A stretch of 64,000 nt of DNA, from positions 6,820,001-6,884,000 of the forward strand of contig NC_090404.1 of NCBI RefSeq assembly GCF_036365525.1. Reading direction: 5' to 3'. The stretch is from Heterodontus francisci. Taxonomy: Eukaryota. Every line of letters starts with the position of its first letter. Position 1 is the stretch's first letter. Shown piece by piece: positions 8,502 through 57,564 of the stretch. Position numbers and translations under genes: made by a program. The notes under the pieces were generated by a model that was not told the origin of the DNA, did no database searches, and worked only from the letters and a program-made list of their open reading frames with translations.

Positions 8502-10133
8502 TTGTCTCAGGAAAATGGTTCATATTAGATTAGTGATAATTATCTCGCTAACCAACAACAAATGACATTTAAGGAAGAACATGGTTTGGGCTGCACGCAA
8601 AGAATGTAATAACCGGACAGATATATTGCATTGACAAACTGCAATTTACAACTCCTATTTAAGTTATAAGTAAATACAAGCTGTCGTTCATCTGTTTAAT
8701 CTGGAATATAACAATTAATTCAAAAGCGCTCATCAAACTGAACACAGCACTGGAATAAGTACACTCTTATTGAAATAACTTCTAGCATAATTAAAAATTG
8801 TCTCCAGCCCATAAAATGTTCTGGTCACGATAATTGTGCGAGTGGCACACCAGAATTGTAAAAGTCGATTAATGAATAATGCATCGATGTTAATATTAAA
8901 GCATATTTCGTTTATATGTGGAGATATTGTCGCATTATAATTGTTTGAATTGCATTAAATTCACTCTCCAATCTGCAAACTTACTGCTTTTGCAGGTTAT
9001 AATTGCAGTAACATTTCACGTACTGAAAGAGCGTCACAAACCATGGTTTAATAGACAAATCTGCAATTAAAGTTATAAAATGCCTTGAAATATTTTAAAG
9101 CATTTTTTTTTCATTTCTGAAACCTGGCAGTTTTCCTGCTACAATCGTCTTCCGTTTCAAACACGTAGAAAGTCTCCATTCGATTAGATAACCTGCAGCT
9201 GCTCGATGTCACAAAGCAGAAACGCCAGCTTCACAAATTTTACTTTGCAGCACAGCCACACACTCTCCTCAGCAGGTAAACCCCAACTCACATCACTGAG
9301 GGACTTAATCCCGCCTCAGTACTTTTCATGGAGAAGCAGCTTAATTCCGCAAACACTTTCATCAGAATCAAATGTAACATTGCAAAAAAAAATCTCAATG
9401 CAGAATCCGCCGAGTCCGCCTGTTTCTGAATTACTACATATATAAAACAATGGCAGCAGAATTGCTGATACAGAGAACATGTTTCATAAATTAATATTGA
9501 TACTATAGCATTTTAATTGATATTGGCTCATATCACTGCATTATAAGTGAGGTTATATTCATGGAAATCTGAATAAAGCAGCAAACTTGTTATTTATGTC
9601 GTACTTAATTACATCAAAAATGTACTGCATTACGTATGAGTATTCGTGAGCAGTAGATTGATAGATGAAAATTTTTTAATTACCGCAAACAGAAATAGAT
9701 CAAAATATAGTCAGGCGATTTTGACCTCTGAAAGTTTCTGCCTATAAACTTATTTCAAACATATTTAAAACTTATTGTTTGTGTTAGTTCAGAAAATCTG
9801 CAGCAGTTCGATGTCGTCGAGATTAAACATTGTCGGTACGTCAAAAAGTTTAACAGCAATTAGATATTTAACGTCGCCCAGACACACAATCACATCAGCA
9901 AACAAACACCAAATCACATCAATCAGGAGCTGAAACCCTCAAGAGCACCGATTGTGGAGAAACCATTAAAATCTTTCATCCCTTTGCAGCAGAATCACAT
10001 AACAAATTGCAACAAATCTCAATACAGAATCCACCGAATCCACATTTCAGTGAACCAATGCATCATTAAAATAAACAGGAATATAAAATAAAACACAAAC
10101 AAAACAGTTACTGAATGAGAGCTTGCTCCTTAA

Positions 10134-10181
10134 CTGCAGTCACCGTCACCATGGTCCCTTGTCCCCAGTAGTCCATGGCGT
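10134..10181 (-). pseudogene. IGHJ: IgH J segment (AMDYWGQGTMVTVTA) with mutated splice donor
   Basis: Minus strand reads AC GCC ATG GAC TAC TGG GGA CAA GGG ACC ATG GTG ACG GTG ACT GCA G, with the WGQG motif. It is followed by TTAAG where a phase-1 GTAAG donor is expected. Confidence 0.92.
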
Positions 10182-10220
10182 CACAGTGTTACATTCCCTG
10201 GGCTGGGTCACACATTAACA
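10182..10220 (-). other. 23-bp-spacer RSS 5' of JH
   Basis: Heptamer cacagtg 10182-10188, 23-nt spacer, nonamer-like acattaaca 10212-10220. Confidence 0.85.
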
Positions 10221-10546
10221 GGCTGTGCACAGAATAGAGAGAAATCCATCATTATTTTAAACATCCACACACCAGAGGCAAAATAAAATCATGATGGTTC
10301 TTCGTAAAATTGTAACTGCGCGAATGATTCTTTTCACTGTTGATACATTATCCTGATGTTTTATATTTCACTCAGTAACATATCAGCAATTATTGAAATC
10401 ACCAACTCATGAATGAATAATTAATCAGTTGATCCATGATAAACCGTGCTAGGAGAACAGTGCTGGACACAAATAGTACTTCACTGTGTACACATTTGGA
10501 TTGCGAAAACGAGCACTGACCCAGACTCTTAAATTAGTGCTGAGGG

Positions 10547-10574
10547 AGTTTTTGAATTGACAGTAACTGATGTG
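10547..10574 (-). other. 12-bp-spacer RSS directly 3' of the VH/D fusion
   Basis: Minus strand CACATCA + GTTACTGTCAAT (12 nt) + TCAAAAACT. Confidence 0.8.
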
Positions 10575-11056
10575 CCACCTGCCCTGCACAGTAATAGATG
10601 GCGGTGTCTTCAGTATTCAGGTTCTTCATGTCCAAAGCGAAGATATTATGTGAAGTGTCTTTGGACGCAGTAAATCAATCTTTAATCTCTGGGGCGTCGT
10701 TGTTGTCAGATGAACTATCGTAGTGAACCAACCACTCCAGCTCCTGCCCGGGAACCTGTCGGACCCAATGCATCCGATAGTTGCCATGATTGAATCCGCT
10801 GGTTTTACATGTCAGTCTCAGGGAGCCTCCGGGTCTCCTGGTCTCTGCATCTGGCTGAGTCAACACGATATCCGAATGGACACCTGTAAAAAATATCAAA
10901 AACCCTGAGGATTAATCCTGGTGAAATGAATCCTGACTCTGTAACATTCCAGAGAAAGACAAACACTGAGACAGTAACAGTGAGAGAATCAGACAATAAA
11001 AACTACTCACGGGATAAGAAAACCAGCAACAGACTGAGAGAAATCGCCGACCTCAT
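10575..11056 (-). pseudogene. IGHV: IgM-type VH pseudogene (leader exon 11056-11011, intron, V exon from 10883) joined to a short D remnant
   Basis: Leader MRSAISLSLLLVFLS with GTGAGT donor and TTTACAG acceptor. V reads [100 protein letters not shown], with TGA at 10677-10675 where R (CGA) is expected. Then CAGGTGG and a 12-RSS. Confidence 0.93.
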
Positions 11057-11147
11057 CCTTCTGGCAATTCGGGGAAAATGGTTCTGGTAAGAACTCACTG
11101 AGCAAACCGACTCCCGGACTGTTGTATTGCGGTCACAGTGACCGTCC

Positions 11148-11270
11148 TTTAAATACCCAGCAGAAGGGGGCGAGGTTCCAGGCGCCGCCTATCGATTCCC
11201 TGATAGAGGCGGTTACTGGATCCTCATCCCATCTTCCACATCACTAAAGTAATGGACTCACATCATTACA
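11148..11270 (-). promoter_or_regulatory. Putative VH promoter (TATA-like TATTTAAA and two AGTGATGT-like decamer boxes)
   Basis: TATTTAAA at 11155-11148, about 92 nt upstream of the ATG; AGTGATGTGG (~11236-11245) and AATGATGTGA (~11258-11267) on the minus strand; no perfect octamer seen. Confidence 0.45.
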
Positions 11271-13469
11271 CTGGGATATTATTAAATGTGAACGTTTTAT
11301 CTCTATCTTGGGATAGGTATTTGGATGTCTGGTTTGAATGCAAACTGTTACACGGTACTAAATGGTAATATTGCAGTTGAGAATGTGTTCAGTAACAAAT
11401 AATTGCATTGTGGACTGTGAATTAAACCCCTTTATTTCGGCAAAACTACACTAAGGATGTCAAAGCCTAAGATTAAATCATATTATCTGGGTCTGAAGCG
11501 ACTGCTCGTTGCTCTGTCTCTTGCTATCCAACCCTATAGCAATAAAGTATCCCCGATAATGTTTTTTAAAAATCATTTTATGCAATAAAATGCGGGATAT
11601 TAGAAAAGTGATTCTATTTGCAGCGTGAATGACTGTAGTTACCCTACTGAGGACCAGAGTGAATAGAAACACTTCACGTTACACAAGTCTTTCTCTCTCT
11701 CTCTCTCTCTCTGTATATTTCTCGAATTGTTCTTGATTCTATGACCCTAAGCGAGCCATTTGAAAATTACCTGCACAATAAGTTGACTTGCCTGATAATG
11801 AAGGAGTGACATGTAAAATTCAGATCAGCTTTTGAAAAACAGAAGCTCGTGAATCAGAACTGATATGGCGATCAGCAAATTTGTCCCCCTGCATGCTAAT
11901 TATTGCAGATAACTGTAATAGCGACAGACTGTGCAACATACTTTGGTGTTAGAAACGCAGCTATCAAGACTTGACGCCATGCTACATGGAAACGGATCAC
12001 AAACTGAGGATTTCTCGATCCATCGGTAGCCTGGCTATGAGAAGGCTAGTTTAACAATCGAAATCATCAAAAATTAAACTGTATGGTACGCAGCTGTTAT
12101 CAGTAATAAAGGAGTCATTAGTTTGAATGTAATTCACACCTCTGTGAGGAAACTCAAGGAAATGCTGCGGGTTCAAGGCAATTCCACCTATTTATTTATT
12201 ATGCTATTCCCACTTATATCAATATGATGTGGGTATGGACTTATTAAAATCTCACTCTAGGACATCATGCAGTAGGAACTAAATGGACTAAATTATCTTG
12301 AATCATATTTGATTGACATTTGGGTCAATTTATTATTTTGAGCTCCCATTATGTCATGACTTGAGCACTGAATTTACCTAAGGTCATTCTTTAGATGTGA
12401 TATCACGTAAAATGCAATTTTTAAAGAGCGCTGCTGATTAACTTAATGTTTAAATGTTTAAATCCAATTTTTGTCCATTCTATTCACGCTAATCTGCCCC
12501 ACACAGTATTTGGCAGCAAACCAGCTAAATGCTGTCAGGGAGCCTCGAATACCCAATATTATTTACAGGAAGCATCTGGGTGTTCTGTGCAGTAAATCAA
12601 AGATCTGTTTCCTCTTTACTGACCGCTTTGCTGCAAGCCAACTTCAAACTCTTAACATTGTGAATGAGGCCCATTCATAAACAAATCTACCCAGCAACAA
12701 TACTGGATTCAAATTTATTTTTTTCAGTTGTTAAACTCTGTGAACTGTTCCCATCTCTCAGGAAATGAAATACATTCAAACTCTAGACACACTTTTCGGA
12801 GCAACAGTCCACTGGAGAATCTGTCAGCACATCATAACATTGCAACAGAAATACAGACAGCCAAACATATATACAGACAGAGAGGGGATTAGAGAGAGGA
12901 TGACTTCTGAAAGAGATAAATATGCTGACTTGCATGGACAGAGGGACAGATGCAGCGATGCTGAAATGAATGGATAGCTGGAGGTATGAATGTTTTGTAT
13001 AAAGGACCGATGAACGGATTGATTGATGGATGTATGGATTGATAGATGTGAGAATGAATGGATGGATGGGCCTGAAAGATACTGTTTTACAGTCTCGTCT
13101 TTCTGATTGACTATTCCTAAGCTAAACCCGCCATTTGTATCAGTCTGACGCCTTCAGTCCTTCCTGATTTTCTGGATCATTTTAATTCCTAGGTTATCCG
13201 AAGTTAACGAGCTGAATTCACAAAGAGAAACCTGAGATATCCCTGTGGTACTGATATTCCTTCTCTGCTGATGGCGAATTTTCGTCTCAAAGGGAGAATA
13301 TGACTGGGTTGAGAAAGGACGATTGTAATATTTCTGAACATGTGGTCCTTTCACGCCCAACAAATCACTCACCCGAATTACTTCAATCGCATCAGACATG
13401 TCGCAAACGAGTAGATACATTTTTTCACTTCCCTACAGGAATTATTTTTTATTTATCTGGAGATGCAGC

Positions 13470-35833: not shown

Positions 35834-36304
35834 ATGCATTGCAAATTCACCCTTTTGACTACTCTCATCTGTTTAACATTTGGTAAGTCTTTAACTGATG
35901 ATATTGTACAAACCTTTGTAAGACACAAGAGTGTTTAAAATGAAACTCGCAATTAATTTATAATCATACTTTCAATCTTTCCACCAGATCTGCTTCAGGG
36001 AGATTCTGTGTCTCAGGATTGGTCGGCTGTAGTCATGAAAGTGGGACAGACTTTCAGAACCCAATGTAGCTATTCGACAACAGTAGGCAGCTACGACCTG
36101 TACTGGTACAGAAAGTATCCCGATGCTCCCCCGGAGATGATCGTGTGGAGAAGTGCCAGTGGCAGTCAGGGAAAAGCAAAAAACATTGGGAATCGCTTCA
36201 CTTCTGAATTAACCACATCGTCAAAAGTGTCTATTTTAACCGTCACTGATCTCCAGCTGAGAGACACGGCGCTGTACATTTGTGGATTCGCTCGATCATT
36301 CCGA
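35834..36304 (+). CDS. TRDV/TRAV: Intact TCR delta/alpha-type V segment (leader exon 35834-35882, V exon 35988-36304)
   Basis: Leader MHCKFTLLTTLICLTF + GTAAGT; acceptor ccaccag. V reads DLLQG-DSVSQDWSAVVMKVGQTFRTQCSYSTTVGSYDLYWYRKYPDAPPEMIVW...NRFTSEL...LTVTDLQLRDTALYICGFARSFR, with both cysteines and the conserved W. Confidence 0.93.
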
Positions 36305-36343
36305 CACAGTGATACAACCTAATGGTTCACTCGTACAAAAACT
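36305..36343 (+). other. Canonical 23-RSS
   Basis: cacagtg + 23 nt + acaaaaact. Confidence 0.95.
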
Positions 36344-49461: not shown

Positions 49462-49888
49462 ATGAACAGAAACCTCCACAAAAACCTGTCTCCAGTTGGA
49501 GTTCTGCTGCTGTTGATGTTGGGTGAGTTTATTTATCTGATCATAGACTTTGTTTCACCAATATCTTAATACCTTGTGGTTGTTGAATAATTTTGTTTTG
49601 CTCACAGCCGTTCAGTGTGAGGATCAGAGCTCACACCCTGAGCAGGTGGTGTCTCGGGAAGGGGAACGGGTTGAACTGGACTGCTGGCTCTCCATTGCTG
49701 CTGGGGATACAGTAGACTGGTACAGACAAACACTGACAAGGCACCGACATTTATCGGCTCCATATACCAGGGGACTGAGACTACAGGACGCTACACACTG
49801 TCGTTGGACCCAGTTCAGAAGTCCAACACCATTTCTATAGATCCCACCGAGGCCCAGGACGCCGGTCTGTATCACTGTGCAATGGGGA
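49462..49888 (+). pseudogene. TRAV/TRDV: TCR alpha/delta-type V segment with a single 1-nt frameshift (leader 49462-49522, V exon 49608-49888)
   Basis: Leader MNRNLHKNLSPVGVLLLLML + GTGAGT; acceptor ctcacag. V reads AVQC-EDQSSHPEQVVSREGERVELDCWLSIAAGDTVDWYRQT, shifts at ~49733, then DKAPTFIGSIYQGTETTGRYTLSLDPVQKSNTISIDPTEAQDAGLYHCAMG. CRE-like tgacgtct at 49270-49277 upstream. Confidence 0.88.
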
Positions 49889-49927
49889 CACAGTGAGGCA
49901 AAGAGCGGATCCGGCTGCACAATATCT
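49889..49927 (+). other. 23-RSS
   Basis: cacagtg + 23 nt + acaatatct. Confidence 0.85.
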
Positions 49928-50381
49928 TGTTTAGTGCCGTGTCCCTGCTGCATCTTTAACCTTTCCCCAAACCAAGCCCTTTGGAAGTATTGGTGATATT
50001 CAGAAATGTTAATGGTCCGTGTTTAAACTTCCCTCTGGATAAAGTTTCATCATTCTATAGCTGTCACTGCAGATACAGTGCATCGAAACATAATTAACTG
50101 AGATATTATATGTTTAGTTGCACAACATACAGAGTAAATAGATGAACAAACATTGAACAATGCCTCCCACACAACATCGATAAATAAATAGCGCAAGAAA
50201 GAGGGAGGCAAATTAATATATAGATAGAGAGATAGATATAGATGGATATATAGTTGTACCGATTGATAAACCGACAGGTAAGTAGATAGATCGATAGATA
50301 GGTATGTAGATTAGTTCATTTTACCTGTATCAATTCTCTTTGCGTTTATCATTATAATAATTATTGATCTTGCTTTGACAG

Positions 50382-50662
50382 CTGTTCCTTGTCACTCGGA
50401 GACATTCCAAATGTCGGTGCATCAAGGAACTGAAGGACAAACCATTTCACTTCATCACAACGCTGCTTTCGCTCCAGCTGATTCGATATTCTGGTGCCAG
50501 CAGTTCTCCAATCAAGCTCCCCAGTATCTCCTCTCCACATACAGAGATGAGAAAGTTGAGGGAAGGTTTAAAATATCTGTCGACAGTGAGAAGGGCTCCA
50601 CTACTCTTATGGTAAACACGGCTCGGCTGTCAGACGCTGCGGTGTATTACAGTGCAGTGAGA
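50382..50662 (+). pseudogene. TRAV: TCR alpha-type V exon, open frame but both canonical cysteines lost; no intact leader found
   Basis: Acceptor tttgacag. Reads VPCHSETFQMSVHQGTEGQTISLHHNAAFAPADSIFWCQQFSNQAPQYLLSTYRDEKVEGRFKISVDSEKGSTTLMVNTARLSDAAVYYSAVR. Confidence 0.85.
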
Positions 50663-50701
50663 CAAAGTGAAATAAAGTAATGAGGAGCCTGTACAATAAC
50701 T
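50663..50701 (+). other. 23-RSS with broken heptamer
   Basis: caaagtg (CAC changed to CAA) + 23 nt + acaataact. Confidence 0.8.
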
Positions 50702-53412: not shown

Positions 53413-56400
53413 AAAGAACAAAGTACAAAGAAAATTACAGCACAGGAACAGGCCCTTCGGCCATCCAAGCCTGCGCCGATCCAGATCCTCTATCTAAACC
53501 TGTCGCCTATTTTCTAAGGGTCTGTATCTCTTTGCTTCCTGCCCATTCATGTATCTGTCTAGATACATCTTAAAAGACGCTATCGTGCCTGCGTCTACCA
53601 CCTCCGCTGGCAAAGCGTTCCAGGCACCCACCACCCTCTGCGTAAAGAACTTTCCACGCGTATCCCCCCTAAACTTTTCCCCTCTCACTTTGAACTCGTG
53701 ACCTCTAGTAATTGAATCCCCCACTCTGGGAAAAAGCTTCTTGCTATCAACCCTGTCTATACCTCTCATGATTTTGTACACTTCAATCAGGTGCCCCCTC
53801 AAACTCCGTCTTTCCAAAGAAAATAATCCTAATCTACTCAACCTCTCTTCATAGCTAGCGCCCTCCATACCAGGCAACATCCTGGTGAACCTCCTCTGCA
53901 CCCTCTCCAAAGCATCTACATCCTTTTGGCAAAGTGGCGACCAGAACTGCACGCAGTATTCCAAATGTGGCCGAACCAAAGTCTTATACAACTGGAACAT
54001 GACCTGCCAAACCTTGTACTCAATACCCCGTCCGATGAAGGAGAGCCTGCCGAATGCCTTCTTGACAACTCGATTGACCTGCGTTGCCACCTTCAGGGAA
54101 CAATGGACCTGAACACCCAAATCTCTCTGCACATCAATTTTCCCCAGGACTTTTCCATTTACTGTATAGTTCACTCTTGAATTGGATCTTCCAAAATGCA
54201 TTACCAAGCATTTGCCCGGATTGAACTCCATCTGCCATTTCTCTGCCCAGCTCTCCAATCTATCTATATTCTGCTGTATTCTCTGACAGTTCCCTTCACT
54301 ATCTGCTACTCCACCAATCTTAGTGTCGTCTGCAAACTTGCTAATCAGACCACCTATACTTTCCTCCAAATCATTTATGTATATCACAAACAACAGTGGT
54401 CCCAGCACGGATCCCTGTGGAACACCACTGGTCACACGTCTCCATTTTGAGAAACTTCCTTCCACTGCTACTCTCTGTCTCCTGTTGCCCAGCCAGTTCT
54501 TTATCCATCTAGCTAGTACACCCTGGAACCCATGCGACTTCACTTTCTCCATCAGCCTACCATGGGGAACCTTATCAAACGCCTTACTGAAGTCCATGTA
54601 TATGACATCTACAGCCCTTCCCTCATCAATCAACTTTGTCACTTCCTCAAAGAATTCTATTAAGTTGGAAAGACATGACCTTCCCTGCACAAAACCATGT
54701 TGCCTATCAGTGATAAGCCCATTTTCTTCCAAATGGGAATAGATCCTATCCCTCAGTATCGTCTCCAGCAGCTTCCCTACCACTGACGTCAGGCTCAACG
54801 GTCTATAATTAGCTGGATTTTCCTTGCTACCCTTCTTAAACAAGGGGACAACATTAGCAATTCTCCAGTCCTCCGGGACCTCACCTGTGTTTAAGGATGC
54901 TGCAAAGATATCTGTTAAGGCCCCAGCTATTTCCTCTCTCGTTTCCCTCAGTAACCTGGGATAGATCCCATCCGGACCTGGGGACTTGTCCACCTTAATG
55001 CCTTTTAGAATACCCATCACTTCCTCCCTCCTTATGCCGACTTGACCTAGAGTAATCAAACATCTGTCCCTAACTTCAACATCCGTCATGTCCCTCTCCT
55101 CGGTGAATACCGATGCAAAGTACTTGTTTAGAATCTCACCCATTTTCCCTGACTCCACGCATAACTTTCCTCCTTTGTCCTTGAGTGGGCCAATCCTTTC
55201 TCTAGTTACCCTCTTGCTCCTTATATATGAATAAAAGGCTTTGGGATTTTCCTTAACCCTGTTTGCTAAAGATATTTCATGACCCCTTTTAGCCCTCTTA
55301 ATTCCTCGTTTCAGATTGGTCCTACATTCCCGATATTCTTTCAAAGCTTCGTCTTTCTTCAGCCTTCTAGACCTTATGTATGCTTCCTTTTTCCTCTTAG
55401 CTCGTCTCACAATTTCACCTGTCATCCATGGTTCCCTAATCTTGCCATTCCTATCCCTCATTTTCACAGGAACATGTCTCTCCTGCACGCTAATCAACCT
55501 CTCTTTAAAAGCCTCCCACATATCAAATGTGGATTTACCTTCAAACAGCTGCTCCCAATCTACATTCCCCAGCTCCTGCTGAATTTTGGTATAGTTGGCC
55601 TTCCCCCAATTTAGCACTCTTCCTTTGGGACCACTCTCATCTTTGTCCATGAGTATTCTAAAACTTAGGGAATTGTAATCACTATTCCCAAAGTAGTCCC
55701 CTACTGAAACTTCAACCACCTGGCCGGGCTCATTCCCCAACACCAGGTCCAGTATGGCCCCTTCCCGAGTTGGACTATTTACATACTGCTCCAGAAAACC
55801 CTCCTGGGTGCTCCTTACAAATTCTGCTCCATCTAGACCTCTCACACTAAGTGAATCCCAGTCAATGTTGGGAAAATTAAAATCTCCTATCACCACCACC
55901 CTGTTGCTCCTACATCTTTCCATAATCTGTTTACATATTTGTACCTCTATCTCACGTTCGCTGTTGGGAGGCCTGTAGTACAGCCCCAACATTGTTACCG
56001 CACCCTTCCTATTTCTGAGTTCTGCCCATATTGCCTCACTGCTCGAGTCCTCCATAGTGCCCTCCTTCAGCACAGCTGTGATATCATCTTTGACCAGTAA
56101 TGCAACTCCTCCACCCCTTTTATCTCCCTCTCTTTCCCGGATGAAGCATCGATATCCTGGGATATTTAGTTGCCAATCATGCCCTTCCCTCAACCAAGTC
56201 TCAGTAACAGCAATAACATCATACTCCCAGGTACTAATCCAAGCGCTAAGTTCATCTGCCTTTCCTACTACACTTCTTGCATTAAAACAAATGCACCTCA
56301 GACCACCAGTCCCTTTGCGTGCATCATCTGCTCCCTGCCTACTCTTTCCCTTAGTCACGCTGACTTCATTATGTAGTTCCTTACAGGCTTTCGTTGCTAC

Positions 56401-57564
56401 TTCCTTACTGTTCACTGACCTCCTGATTTGGTTCCCACCCCCCTGCAACATTAGTTTAAACCCTCCCCAACAGCAAAAGCACCCCCAAGGACATTGGTCC
56501 CAGTCTGGACGAGGTGTCGACCGTCCAATTTGTAATAGTCCCACCTCCCCCAGAACCGGTCCCAATGTCCCAAAAATCTGAACCCCTCCCTCCTGCACCA
56601 TCTCTCAAGCCACGCATTCATCCTGATTATTCTTTCATTTCTACTCTGACTATCACGTGGCACTGGTAGCAATCTTGAGATTACTACCTGTGAGGTCCTA
56701 CTTTATAACTTGGCTCCTAACTCCCTAAATTCTGCTTGTTGGACCTCATCCCGTTTTTTACCTATATCATTGGTGCCTATGTGCACAGTGACAACTGGCT
56801 GCTCACGCTCACCTTTCAGAATGTTCTGCAGCTGATCTGAGACATCCCTGACCCGTGCACCTGGGAGGCAACATACCATTCGGGAGTCTCGTTTTCGACC
56901 ACAGAACCGCCTATCTACTCCCCTTACAATCGAATCCCCTATGACTATAGCCCTTCCACTCTTTTTCCCGCCCTTCCGAACAGCAGAGCCAGCCACGGTG
57001 CCATGAAACTGGCTACTGCTGCCTTCCCCTGGTGAGCCATCTCCCTCAACAGTATCCAAAACGGTATACCTGTTTTCGAGGGAGATGACCGCAGGGGACA
57101 CCTGCGCTGCCTTCCTGCTCTTTCTCTGCCTTTTGGTCACCCATTCCCTTTCTCCCTCAGCAATCCTAATCTGTGGTGTGACCAATTCGCTAAACGTGCT
57201 ATCCACGACCTCCTCAGCATCGCGGATGCTCCGAAGTCAGTCCACCCGCAGCTCCAGAGCAGTCATGCGGTCTAACAAGAGCTGCAGCTGGACACGCTTC
57301 CTGCACGTGAAGGAGTCAGGGACATCAGCCGTGTCCCTGAGCTCCCACATTGAGCAAGAGGAGCATAACACGGTTCTGAGATCTCCTGCCATTTTTAATC
57401 TTAAGCTTAACTTAGTCTTAACTTAGATAAATGAAAAAGGAGCGAAAGGTTTTTACCAATCACGCGATTAAAAAAAAGAGAAATAGGAAAAGCCTTACCT
57501 TATCTACACACCACCGAGTCTTTTTTTTTTTGGTTCGAGGAGGAGGTGGGAGACACTACACGTG
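53413..57564 (-). mobile_element. Near full-length young CR1 LINE: ORF1 (Cys-rich N-terminus plus SGNH esterase-like domain, two stops) and open ORF2
   Basis: ORF1 ATG at 57392 (MAGDLRTVLCSSCSMW...), GDSIVRG, CLPGARV and HIGTND motifs, stops at ~57238 and ~56704; tail ttctttgtactttgttcttt. Confidence 0.96.
53494..56601 (-). CDS. CR1 ORF2: APE endonuclease plus reverse transcriptase (true start probably downstream of 56601)
   Basis: 1035-aa open frame with FNARS, TETW, YYRPP, GDFNFP, LDLVL, NYRPLSLTS, QGSVLGP, FADD. Confidence 0.92.
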   Translation of the reverse strand: MVQEGGVQIFGTLGPVLGEVGLLQIGRSTPRPDWDQCPWGCFCCWGGFKLMLQGGGNQIRRSVNSKEVATKACKELHNEVSVTKGKSRQGADDARKGTGGLRCICFNARSVVGKADELSAWISTWEYDVIAVTETWLREGHDWQLNIPGYRCFIREREGDKRGGGVALLVKDDITAVLKEGTMEDSSSEAIWAELRNRKGAVTMLGLYYRPPNSEREIEVQICKQIMERCRSNRVVVIGDFNFPNIDWDSLSVRGLDGAEFVRSTQEGFLEQYVNSPTREGAILDLVLGNEPGQVVEVSVGDYFGNSDYNSLSFRILMDKDESGPKGRVLNWGKANYTKIQQELGNVDWEQLFEGKSTFDMWEAFKERLISVQERHVPVKMRDRNGKIREPWMTGEIVRRAKRKKEAYIRSRRLKKDEALKEYRECRTNLKRGIKRAKRGHEISLANRVKENPKAFYSYIRSKRVTRERIGPLKDKGGKLCVESGKMGEILNKYFASVFTEERDMTDVEVRDRCLITLGQVGIRREEVMGILKGIKVDKSPGPDGIYPRLLRETREEIAGALTDIFAASLNTGEVPEDWRIANVVPLFKKGSKENPANYRPLSLTSVVGKLLETILRDRIYSHLEENGLITDRQHGFVQGRSCLSNLIEFFEEVTKLIDEGRAVDVIYMDFSKAFDKVPHGRLMEKVKSHGFQGVLARWIKNWLGNRRQRVAVEGSFSKWRRVTSGVPQGSVLGPLLFVIYINDLEESIGGLISKFADDTKIGGVADSEGNCQRIQQNIDRLESWAEKWQMEFNPGKCLVMHFGRSNSRVNYTVNGKVLGKIDVQRDLGVQVHCSLKVATQVNRVVKKAFGRLSFIGRGIEYKVWQVMFQLYKTLVRPHLEYCVQFWSPLCQKDVDALERVQRRFTRMLPGMEGASYEERLSRLGLFSLERRSLRGHLIEVYKIMRGIDRVDSKKLFPRVGDSITRGHEFKVRGEKFRGDTRGKFFTQRVVGAWNALPAEVVDAGTIASFKMYLDRYMNGQEAKRYRPLENRRQV

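Follow-up and report, generated by a model that had tools for sequence, protein, structure and literature searches.

How does a heavy-chain variable segment come to end, in an assembled genome, in the last nucleotides of a diversity segment while its joining segment still lies unjoined beside it? The question is raised by a unit on the minus strand, 11056-10134, of the 64-kb stretch of DNA analysed here (the window), which by its sequence and open frames is an IgM-type heavy-chain minicluster whose VH is joined to the 3' part of D2 and whose JH is unjoined. The fusion is very probably a RAG coding joint that was made in a germ cell and then inherited. The parts of the unit, in its own reading direction, are as follows.

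11148..11155, minus strand: TATA-like box seen in the sequence upstream of the VH leader, with a presumed promoter function
11011..11056, minus strand: VH leader exon, intact, with a GT donor at 11010
10884..11010, minus strand: leader intron of 127 nt, GT-AG
10585..10883, minus strand: IgM-type VH exon without frameshift, with TGA at 10677-10675, a 3' end that is 6 nt short, and no RSS
10580..10584, minus strand: five putative junction nucleotides, GGGCA, which differ from the V end of the paralogues
10575..10579, minus strand: last five nucleotides of D2, GGTGG, the first eight D2 nucleotides being lost
10547..10574, minus strand: D2 3' RSS, CACATCA-12-TCAAAAACT, with three heptamer and two nonamer mismatches to consensus
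10221..10546, minus strand: D2-J interval of 326 nt, covered by paralogue contigs
10182..10220, minus strand: JH 5' RSS, TGTTAATGT-23-CACTGTG, with a perfect heptamer and three nonamer mismatches
10134..10181, minus strand: unjoined JH, DAMDYWGQGTMVTVT, with TT, not GT, as splice donor at 10133-10132

The initial annotation had described a 12-spacer RSS followed some 330 bp on by a JH with its 23-RSS, and this arrangement was found on the minus strand with an interval of 326 nt. It had also counted seven nucleotides between a terminal YYCAG and the RSS; extra nucleotides are present, but they divide differently, in that V homology ends at 10585 and is followed by five junction nucleotides and five from D2. 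It had missed the setting of the unit among TCR alpha/delta-type V segments, as well as the closest relative, which is from the horn shark.

That relative is HV01 of Heterodontus francisci (P0022), which among named proteins stands closest: the VH is identical to it at 76 of 99 residues (77%) and to other shark VHs at 62-74%, and the first 15 leader residues, compared by eye, are also those of HV01. A domain search assigns the exon to Pfam V-set (E 4.7e-16), and the shark heavy chains among 20 longer relatives are 62-76% identical to it. The VH groups with shark VHs (support 93/81, not starred) in a tree that was built without P0018, P0001-3, P0013, P0017 and P0020, that has low resolution (stars on 3 of its 17 branches), and that serves solely to part VH from TCR V. 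When orthologous joined genes were sought with the read-through protein, three candidates came up, all of which matched the V framework alone, and self-BLAST found no second VH within the 64-kb window.

What the fusion removed can be judged from unjoined paralogues. Public runs X1, X4, X5 and X9 were aligned to 9500-11600 at 80% likeness and gave 139, 238, 13608 and 52 records, respectively; these are 4 of the 13 listed runs, with X2, X3, X6-X8, X13 and the RAD runs X10-X12 left out, and individual contigs and letters are described from the rows listed (24 of 14411 pieces, 19 of 231 loose ends and 40 of 696 letter rows). Among these rows, four X1 and four X4 contigs follow VH and depart from it at 10585 into six more V nucleotides, a canonical heptamer and a spacer. 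The lack of a 23-RSS after VH, reported from the outset, is apparent both in the sequence and from unjoined paralogues whose heptamer stands 6 nt past this V end. On the D2 side the comparison is with one X1 contig, either a paralogue or an unjoined allele of the locus, which follows the D2-J interval to 10579 and then runs into eight more D nucleotides and a 5' heptamer. It had been predicted that 10547-10580 would prove to be the D2 3' end with its flank, and this contig, by continuing into the rest of D2, bears the prediction out; the companion prediction, that 10220-10547 is the D2-J interval, agrees with the match to the paralogue interval. Over 10148-10434, paralogue records 5 and 13 of that interval have 38 differences in 286, and the summed depth of the interval is 26-56 in X1 and 105-280 in X4. 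The D2 end can also be recognized, by eye, in 6 of 12 listed rearranged junctions of X5, once as a variant ending like the window. In a literature search, the Heterodontus paper PMC2191167 has two occurrences of the D2 motif and one of the D1 motif; the 10-nt junction motif does not occur in the one paper that contains at least two of the terms searched.

As a separate observation, two further X4 contigs among the rows listed depart at 10586 with a worn V heptamer, so that the genome has other decayed unjoined clusters.

By comparison with the paralogues, against which (and not against the true ancestor) trimming was counted, the locus is without six V nucleotides, the V RSS, D1 with its flanks, the D2 5' RSS and eight D2 nucleotides, and has five nucleotides instead. 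Motifs for the V RSS and the D2 5' side have no match in the window (three against 2.25 expected when three mismatches are allowed), which argues against inversion or nearby reinsertion of the excised piece. The five nucleotides GGGCA, 10584-10580, are likely to be N additions, with a D1 remnant as the alternative. By eye, the D1 motif matches at most 4 nt at the junction, which is within chance. Of the V-D1-D2 join first proposed, the V-to-D2 part holds; D1 may or may not have taken part, as no D1 sequence is identifiable and one V-to-D2 step fits as well. A single step is modestly preferred over two steps via D1.

In the proposed pathway, a single RAG step would have brought together the V 23-RSS and the D2 5' 12-RSS, with deletion of the ~0.8 kb between V and D2, trimming of 6 nt from V and 8 nt from D2, and addition of up to five untemplated nucleotides. 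The D2 3' 12-RSS would have been left facing the JH 23-RSS, and one more joining step, in somatic cells, would have sufficed to finish it; thereafter the copy would have drifted without selection, decay presumably following the join. A RAG coding joint is indicated because the two breaks, at the V and D2 signals of a 12/23-compatible pair, are both on the coding side and no more than 10 nt away, and are accompanied by trimming and an insert; trimming with insertion is given as the mark of germline RAG joints in passages of PMC2193153. The same V RSS, D1 and most of D2 might instead have been taken by a non-RAG deletion in a decaying pseudogene, a reading with which the decay of the locus, the abundance of LINE fragments in the window and the lack of visible P nucleotides at the junction are all compatible. 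P nucleotides, however, are not expected at trimmed ends, and a random deletion in a 2-kb unit would hit both coding ends of the compatible pair with a rough chance of 2e-4, and a short untemplated insert is present. The unjoined paralogues already largely indicate breakpoints at the two coding ends, free of microhomology; such a deletion is considered most improbable.

The RSS beyond the fusion is assigned to D2. Taken alone this 12-RSS is weak, with five mismatches to consensus in all. An equally relaxed scan found eight RSS sites in the window where 2.7 +/- 1.4 were expected from 30 Markov simulations, and the remaining seven have no V or D context; the chance of a 12-RSS this good in a given 20-nt stretch past the V end is ~4e-4, and a pattern tailored after the fact gave one match against 0.02 expected. 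A 22/23-spacer reading of the nonamer was rejected, as none of the four registers (spacers of 21-24) starts with CAC. The decisive support for assigning the putative 12-RSS to D2 is homology to the unjoined paralogues.

That homology also bears on whether there is a V-D2 joint at all, since the unit could be a native gene type with a 12-RSS behind V, derived by a hybrid-joint RSS swap or representing a TCR-associated Ig-like V. Although passages of PMC2193153 record, for horn shark, a hybrid joint that swapped an RSS in the germline, and although TCR-type V segments lie 25-40 kb away, a hybrid joint would set the RSS directly on the V end, whereas here five D2 coding nucleotides precede the heptamer and the 326 nt downstream correspond to the D2-J interval. 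Moreover, this IgM-type V is accompanied by a JH of its own and points away from the TCR V segments. The initial annotation would have been contradicted by unjoined paralogues carrying the same 12-RSS after V; they have instead a canonical heptamer, 6 nt past V, and a long-spacer RSS, and a native gene of this type has very little probability.

Germline status of the RAG-type join is likely, given DNA contigs that match the window exactly in the flanks. Two DNA runs contain such contigs, X1 at 9647-9976 (depth 2.5) and X4 at 9673-9992 (depth 9.1). X5 contigs also match exactly upstream of the promoter, at 11350-11600, where the paralogue pieces listed differ by 9-17%, so that the divergence is locus-wide and extends beyond the transcribed part. 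X5 is presumably RNA, and the listed holders include no RNA run on record; its exact-match contigs occur in both flanks, may be DNA and were not counted as expression. Four DNA runs of one sample contain 28-37% of the sampled words, and all holders come from a single sample, which may be the one sequenced for the assembly.

The opposing reading is that the germline is unjoined and that the assembly caught a VDD-J formed somatically, and perhaps hypermutated, in a lymphocyte or thymocyte. According to passages of PMC2435157, nurse shark thymocytes often contain VDD-J, and mutations were present in 9 of 15 cDNA clones of this form. Across 10575-10590 no record among the rows listed spans the junction with the window's letters, and X9, from another individual, has a mean depth of 0 to 0.13 across the junction bins. 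Inside the gene the window's letter is in no X1 or X4 contig at the listed positions 10133, 10215, 10408-10456, 10615 and 10869, in letter rows that were selected for missing window letters, at low depth and from contigs that drop rare variants. Yet the locus-specific letters are backed by contigs that match exactly on either side of the gene, the region upstream of the promoter included, and non-paralogue letters do occur at low depth inside the gene, at 10787 in X1 (2.6) and at 10930 and 10961 in X5 (10.9). Somatic junctions, furthermore, are unique per cell (PMC2435157, in the passages concerned), and a junction from a single cell would therefore be expected to be outvoted in the assembly rather than to win the consensus. 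A captured somatic rearrangement is accordingly given only a small probability, and a joint inherited through the germline is preferred.

The VH-D2/JH gene is dead, having a stop codon in FR3 and TT as JH donor, and it would now be unable to encode a heavy chain. Arg occupies the position of the FR3 stop in 14 of 15 aligned VH relatives, and a GT-type letter accounts for all X1 and X4 depth and for 15 of 15 X9 reads at 10133; the stop and the TT, the latter as read from the assembly, are thus lesions of this copy. Both had been reported initially and both are present, while the CGA ancestor then claimed for the TGA is a plausible origin in view of the Arg in the relatives. At 10215 and 10220, in the JH RSS, the paralogues differ from this copy towards consensus. 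As for the D2 heptamer, said to be worn, its three mismatches from consensus are confirmed, but a normal D2 heptamer for comparison was not found in print, a literature search having given unrelated matches only.

It is conceivable, though rather unlikely, that the pre-joined V-D2 was duplicated and that a living sister copy finishes the D2-to-J step in B cells, as a half-made antibody gene. One X5 contig (probably RNA, depth 1165) aligns on its V side as far as 10575, precisely where D2 ends, and continues through 6 nt into the untrimmed start of JH at 10181, in frame by hand count. Among 13608 contigs, however, an ordinary short junction could align in this way too, for an untrimmed V followed directly by trimmed D2 would agree with 6-7 of the 10 junction letters. 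An X4 contig of depth 23.8, covering 10220-10372 of the D2-J interval, has the window's letters at eight listed positions, not at 10215 or 10225, and looks like a close sister copy or an allele. X5 also includes 17 contigs, paralogue transcripts at 80% likeness, in which the 127-nt leader intron is skipped. Horn shark germline-joined H genes are reported as not expressed, in work cited in passages of PMC2193156; an expressed sister, if real, would overturn that report and offer a natural experiment on the purpose of pre-joining. The locus would matter more only if the sister copy proved to be expressed.

Germline VD-J and VDD-J IgM clusters are known in horn shark and little skate from passages of PMC2193153, PMC2193156, PMC5192425 and PMC6795676, the same four papers through which the first description of the partly joined configuration in horn shark, by Kokubu et al. 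1988, is cited. In those clusters, as here, V is fused to D, J is separate, and the family has unjoined members too; this VH is closest to Heterodontus HV01, and the D1 and D2 motifs occur once and twice, respectively, in the Heterodontus paper PMC2191167. Nothing categorical sets the present copy apart, except that it is a pseudogene and lies among TCR-type V segments. Judged from later accounts of the 1988 work, it adds a further example to a kind already described then. The nurse shark NS4 light-chain genes (PMC2193156) likewise have a trimmed coding joint and a joined form derived from a split one, but they are light-chain genes that are fully joined, with several in frame and expressed, and their joining was dated by phylogeny. 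Nurse shark IgM1gj, too, is a germline-rearranged IgM-type heavy-chain gene, but as described in passages of PMC5192425 it is a fully joined VDJ expressed in neonates, whereas the locus here is partly joined and has a stop codon and a TT donor.

The surroundings of the minicluster include three TCR alpha/delta-type V segments, all on the plus strand of the window.

35834..36343, plus strand: intact-looking TCR alpha/delta-type V with leader, intron, open frame and a 23-RSS with one mismatch
49565..49927, plus strand: decayed TCR-type V with 23-RSS, by sequence and homology
50381..50701, plus strand: decayed TCR-type V with second Cys lost and a worn 23-RSS, by sequence and homology

The first of these looks functional and lies on the strand opposite the IgM pseudogene, 25 kb upstream; it is 71% identical to P0021, which has a V-J-C layout and, in single-domain comparison with the PDB, matches TCR delta and alpha chains best. 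The decayed pair at 49.6 and 50.4 kb matches, in order, a TCR-type V pair situated just 3' of C-mu in the catshark model P0008, a likeness that suggests a conserved neighbourhood of IgM cluster and TCR V. A NARTCR reading of this pair was rejected, since both V segments are followed by a 23-RSS and neither D nor J was seen in the DNA between them.

Immunoglobulin V segments of the TAILV type, or IgH V used on TCR delta, rearrange to a TCR delta D through their 23-RSS. The VH of the minicluster was considered as such a segment and set aside, for it has no 23-RSS behind it, has its own JH and lies on the strand opposite the TCR-type V segments. Under the 12/23 rule, loss of the V 23-RSS would have left this V unable to be donated to TCR delta D segments. 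Linkage of IgH clusters to TCR alpha/delta in an elasmobranch antigen receptor complex was described in 2025 (PMC12227049), with TCR-type V exons between the IgH clusters as here; the relevant section of the paper is on four other species and describes no germline-joined cluster in the complex. Two points of interest follow from the locus. A clean RAG-type footprint appears to be fixed in an inherited genome, and it could be used to count and date such events when the clusters of this genome have all been compared; and a pre-joined cluster sits inside an IgH/TCR alpha-delta neighbourhood, where the loss of the V 23-RSS would bar the V from Ig-TCR chimeric use. Neither footprint nor linkage would surprise a specialist, the horn shark configuration dating from 1988 and the linkage from 2025.

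Downstream of JH the window continues for 10.1 kb, of which at least 3.9 kb is repeat and ~6.3 kb is non-repeat DNA. No credible C exon was detected in the window by tblastn with 20 proteins or by phmmer with 43 C-region pieces, the best match having E 0.04 at 62 kb. The distance from J to C-mu 1 in nurse shark is 6.3-6.8 kb (PMC2435157), and since the non-repeat DNA about equals it, C-mu may lie just past the window edge. The description of the unit as an orphan cluster was set aside as unproven, the edge being too near. The J-C intron contains a direct duplication of ~167 bp, 9250-9417 and 9876-10041, whose copies are 69% alike by self-BLAST.

Elsewhere in the window, a LINE at 53494-56604 on the minus strand has an uninterrupted frame of 1036 aa for endonuclease and reverse transcriptase and is probably a young copy, with older relatives at 5.6-8.5, 27.7-29.1 and 43.1-44.3 kb. 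A 27/54-bp tandem repeat family forms dispersed arrays on both strands, at 19.2-22.8, 29.9-30.1 and 41.0-41.3 kb.
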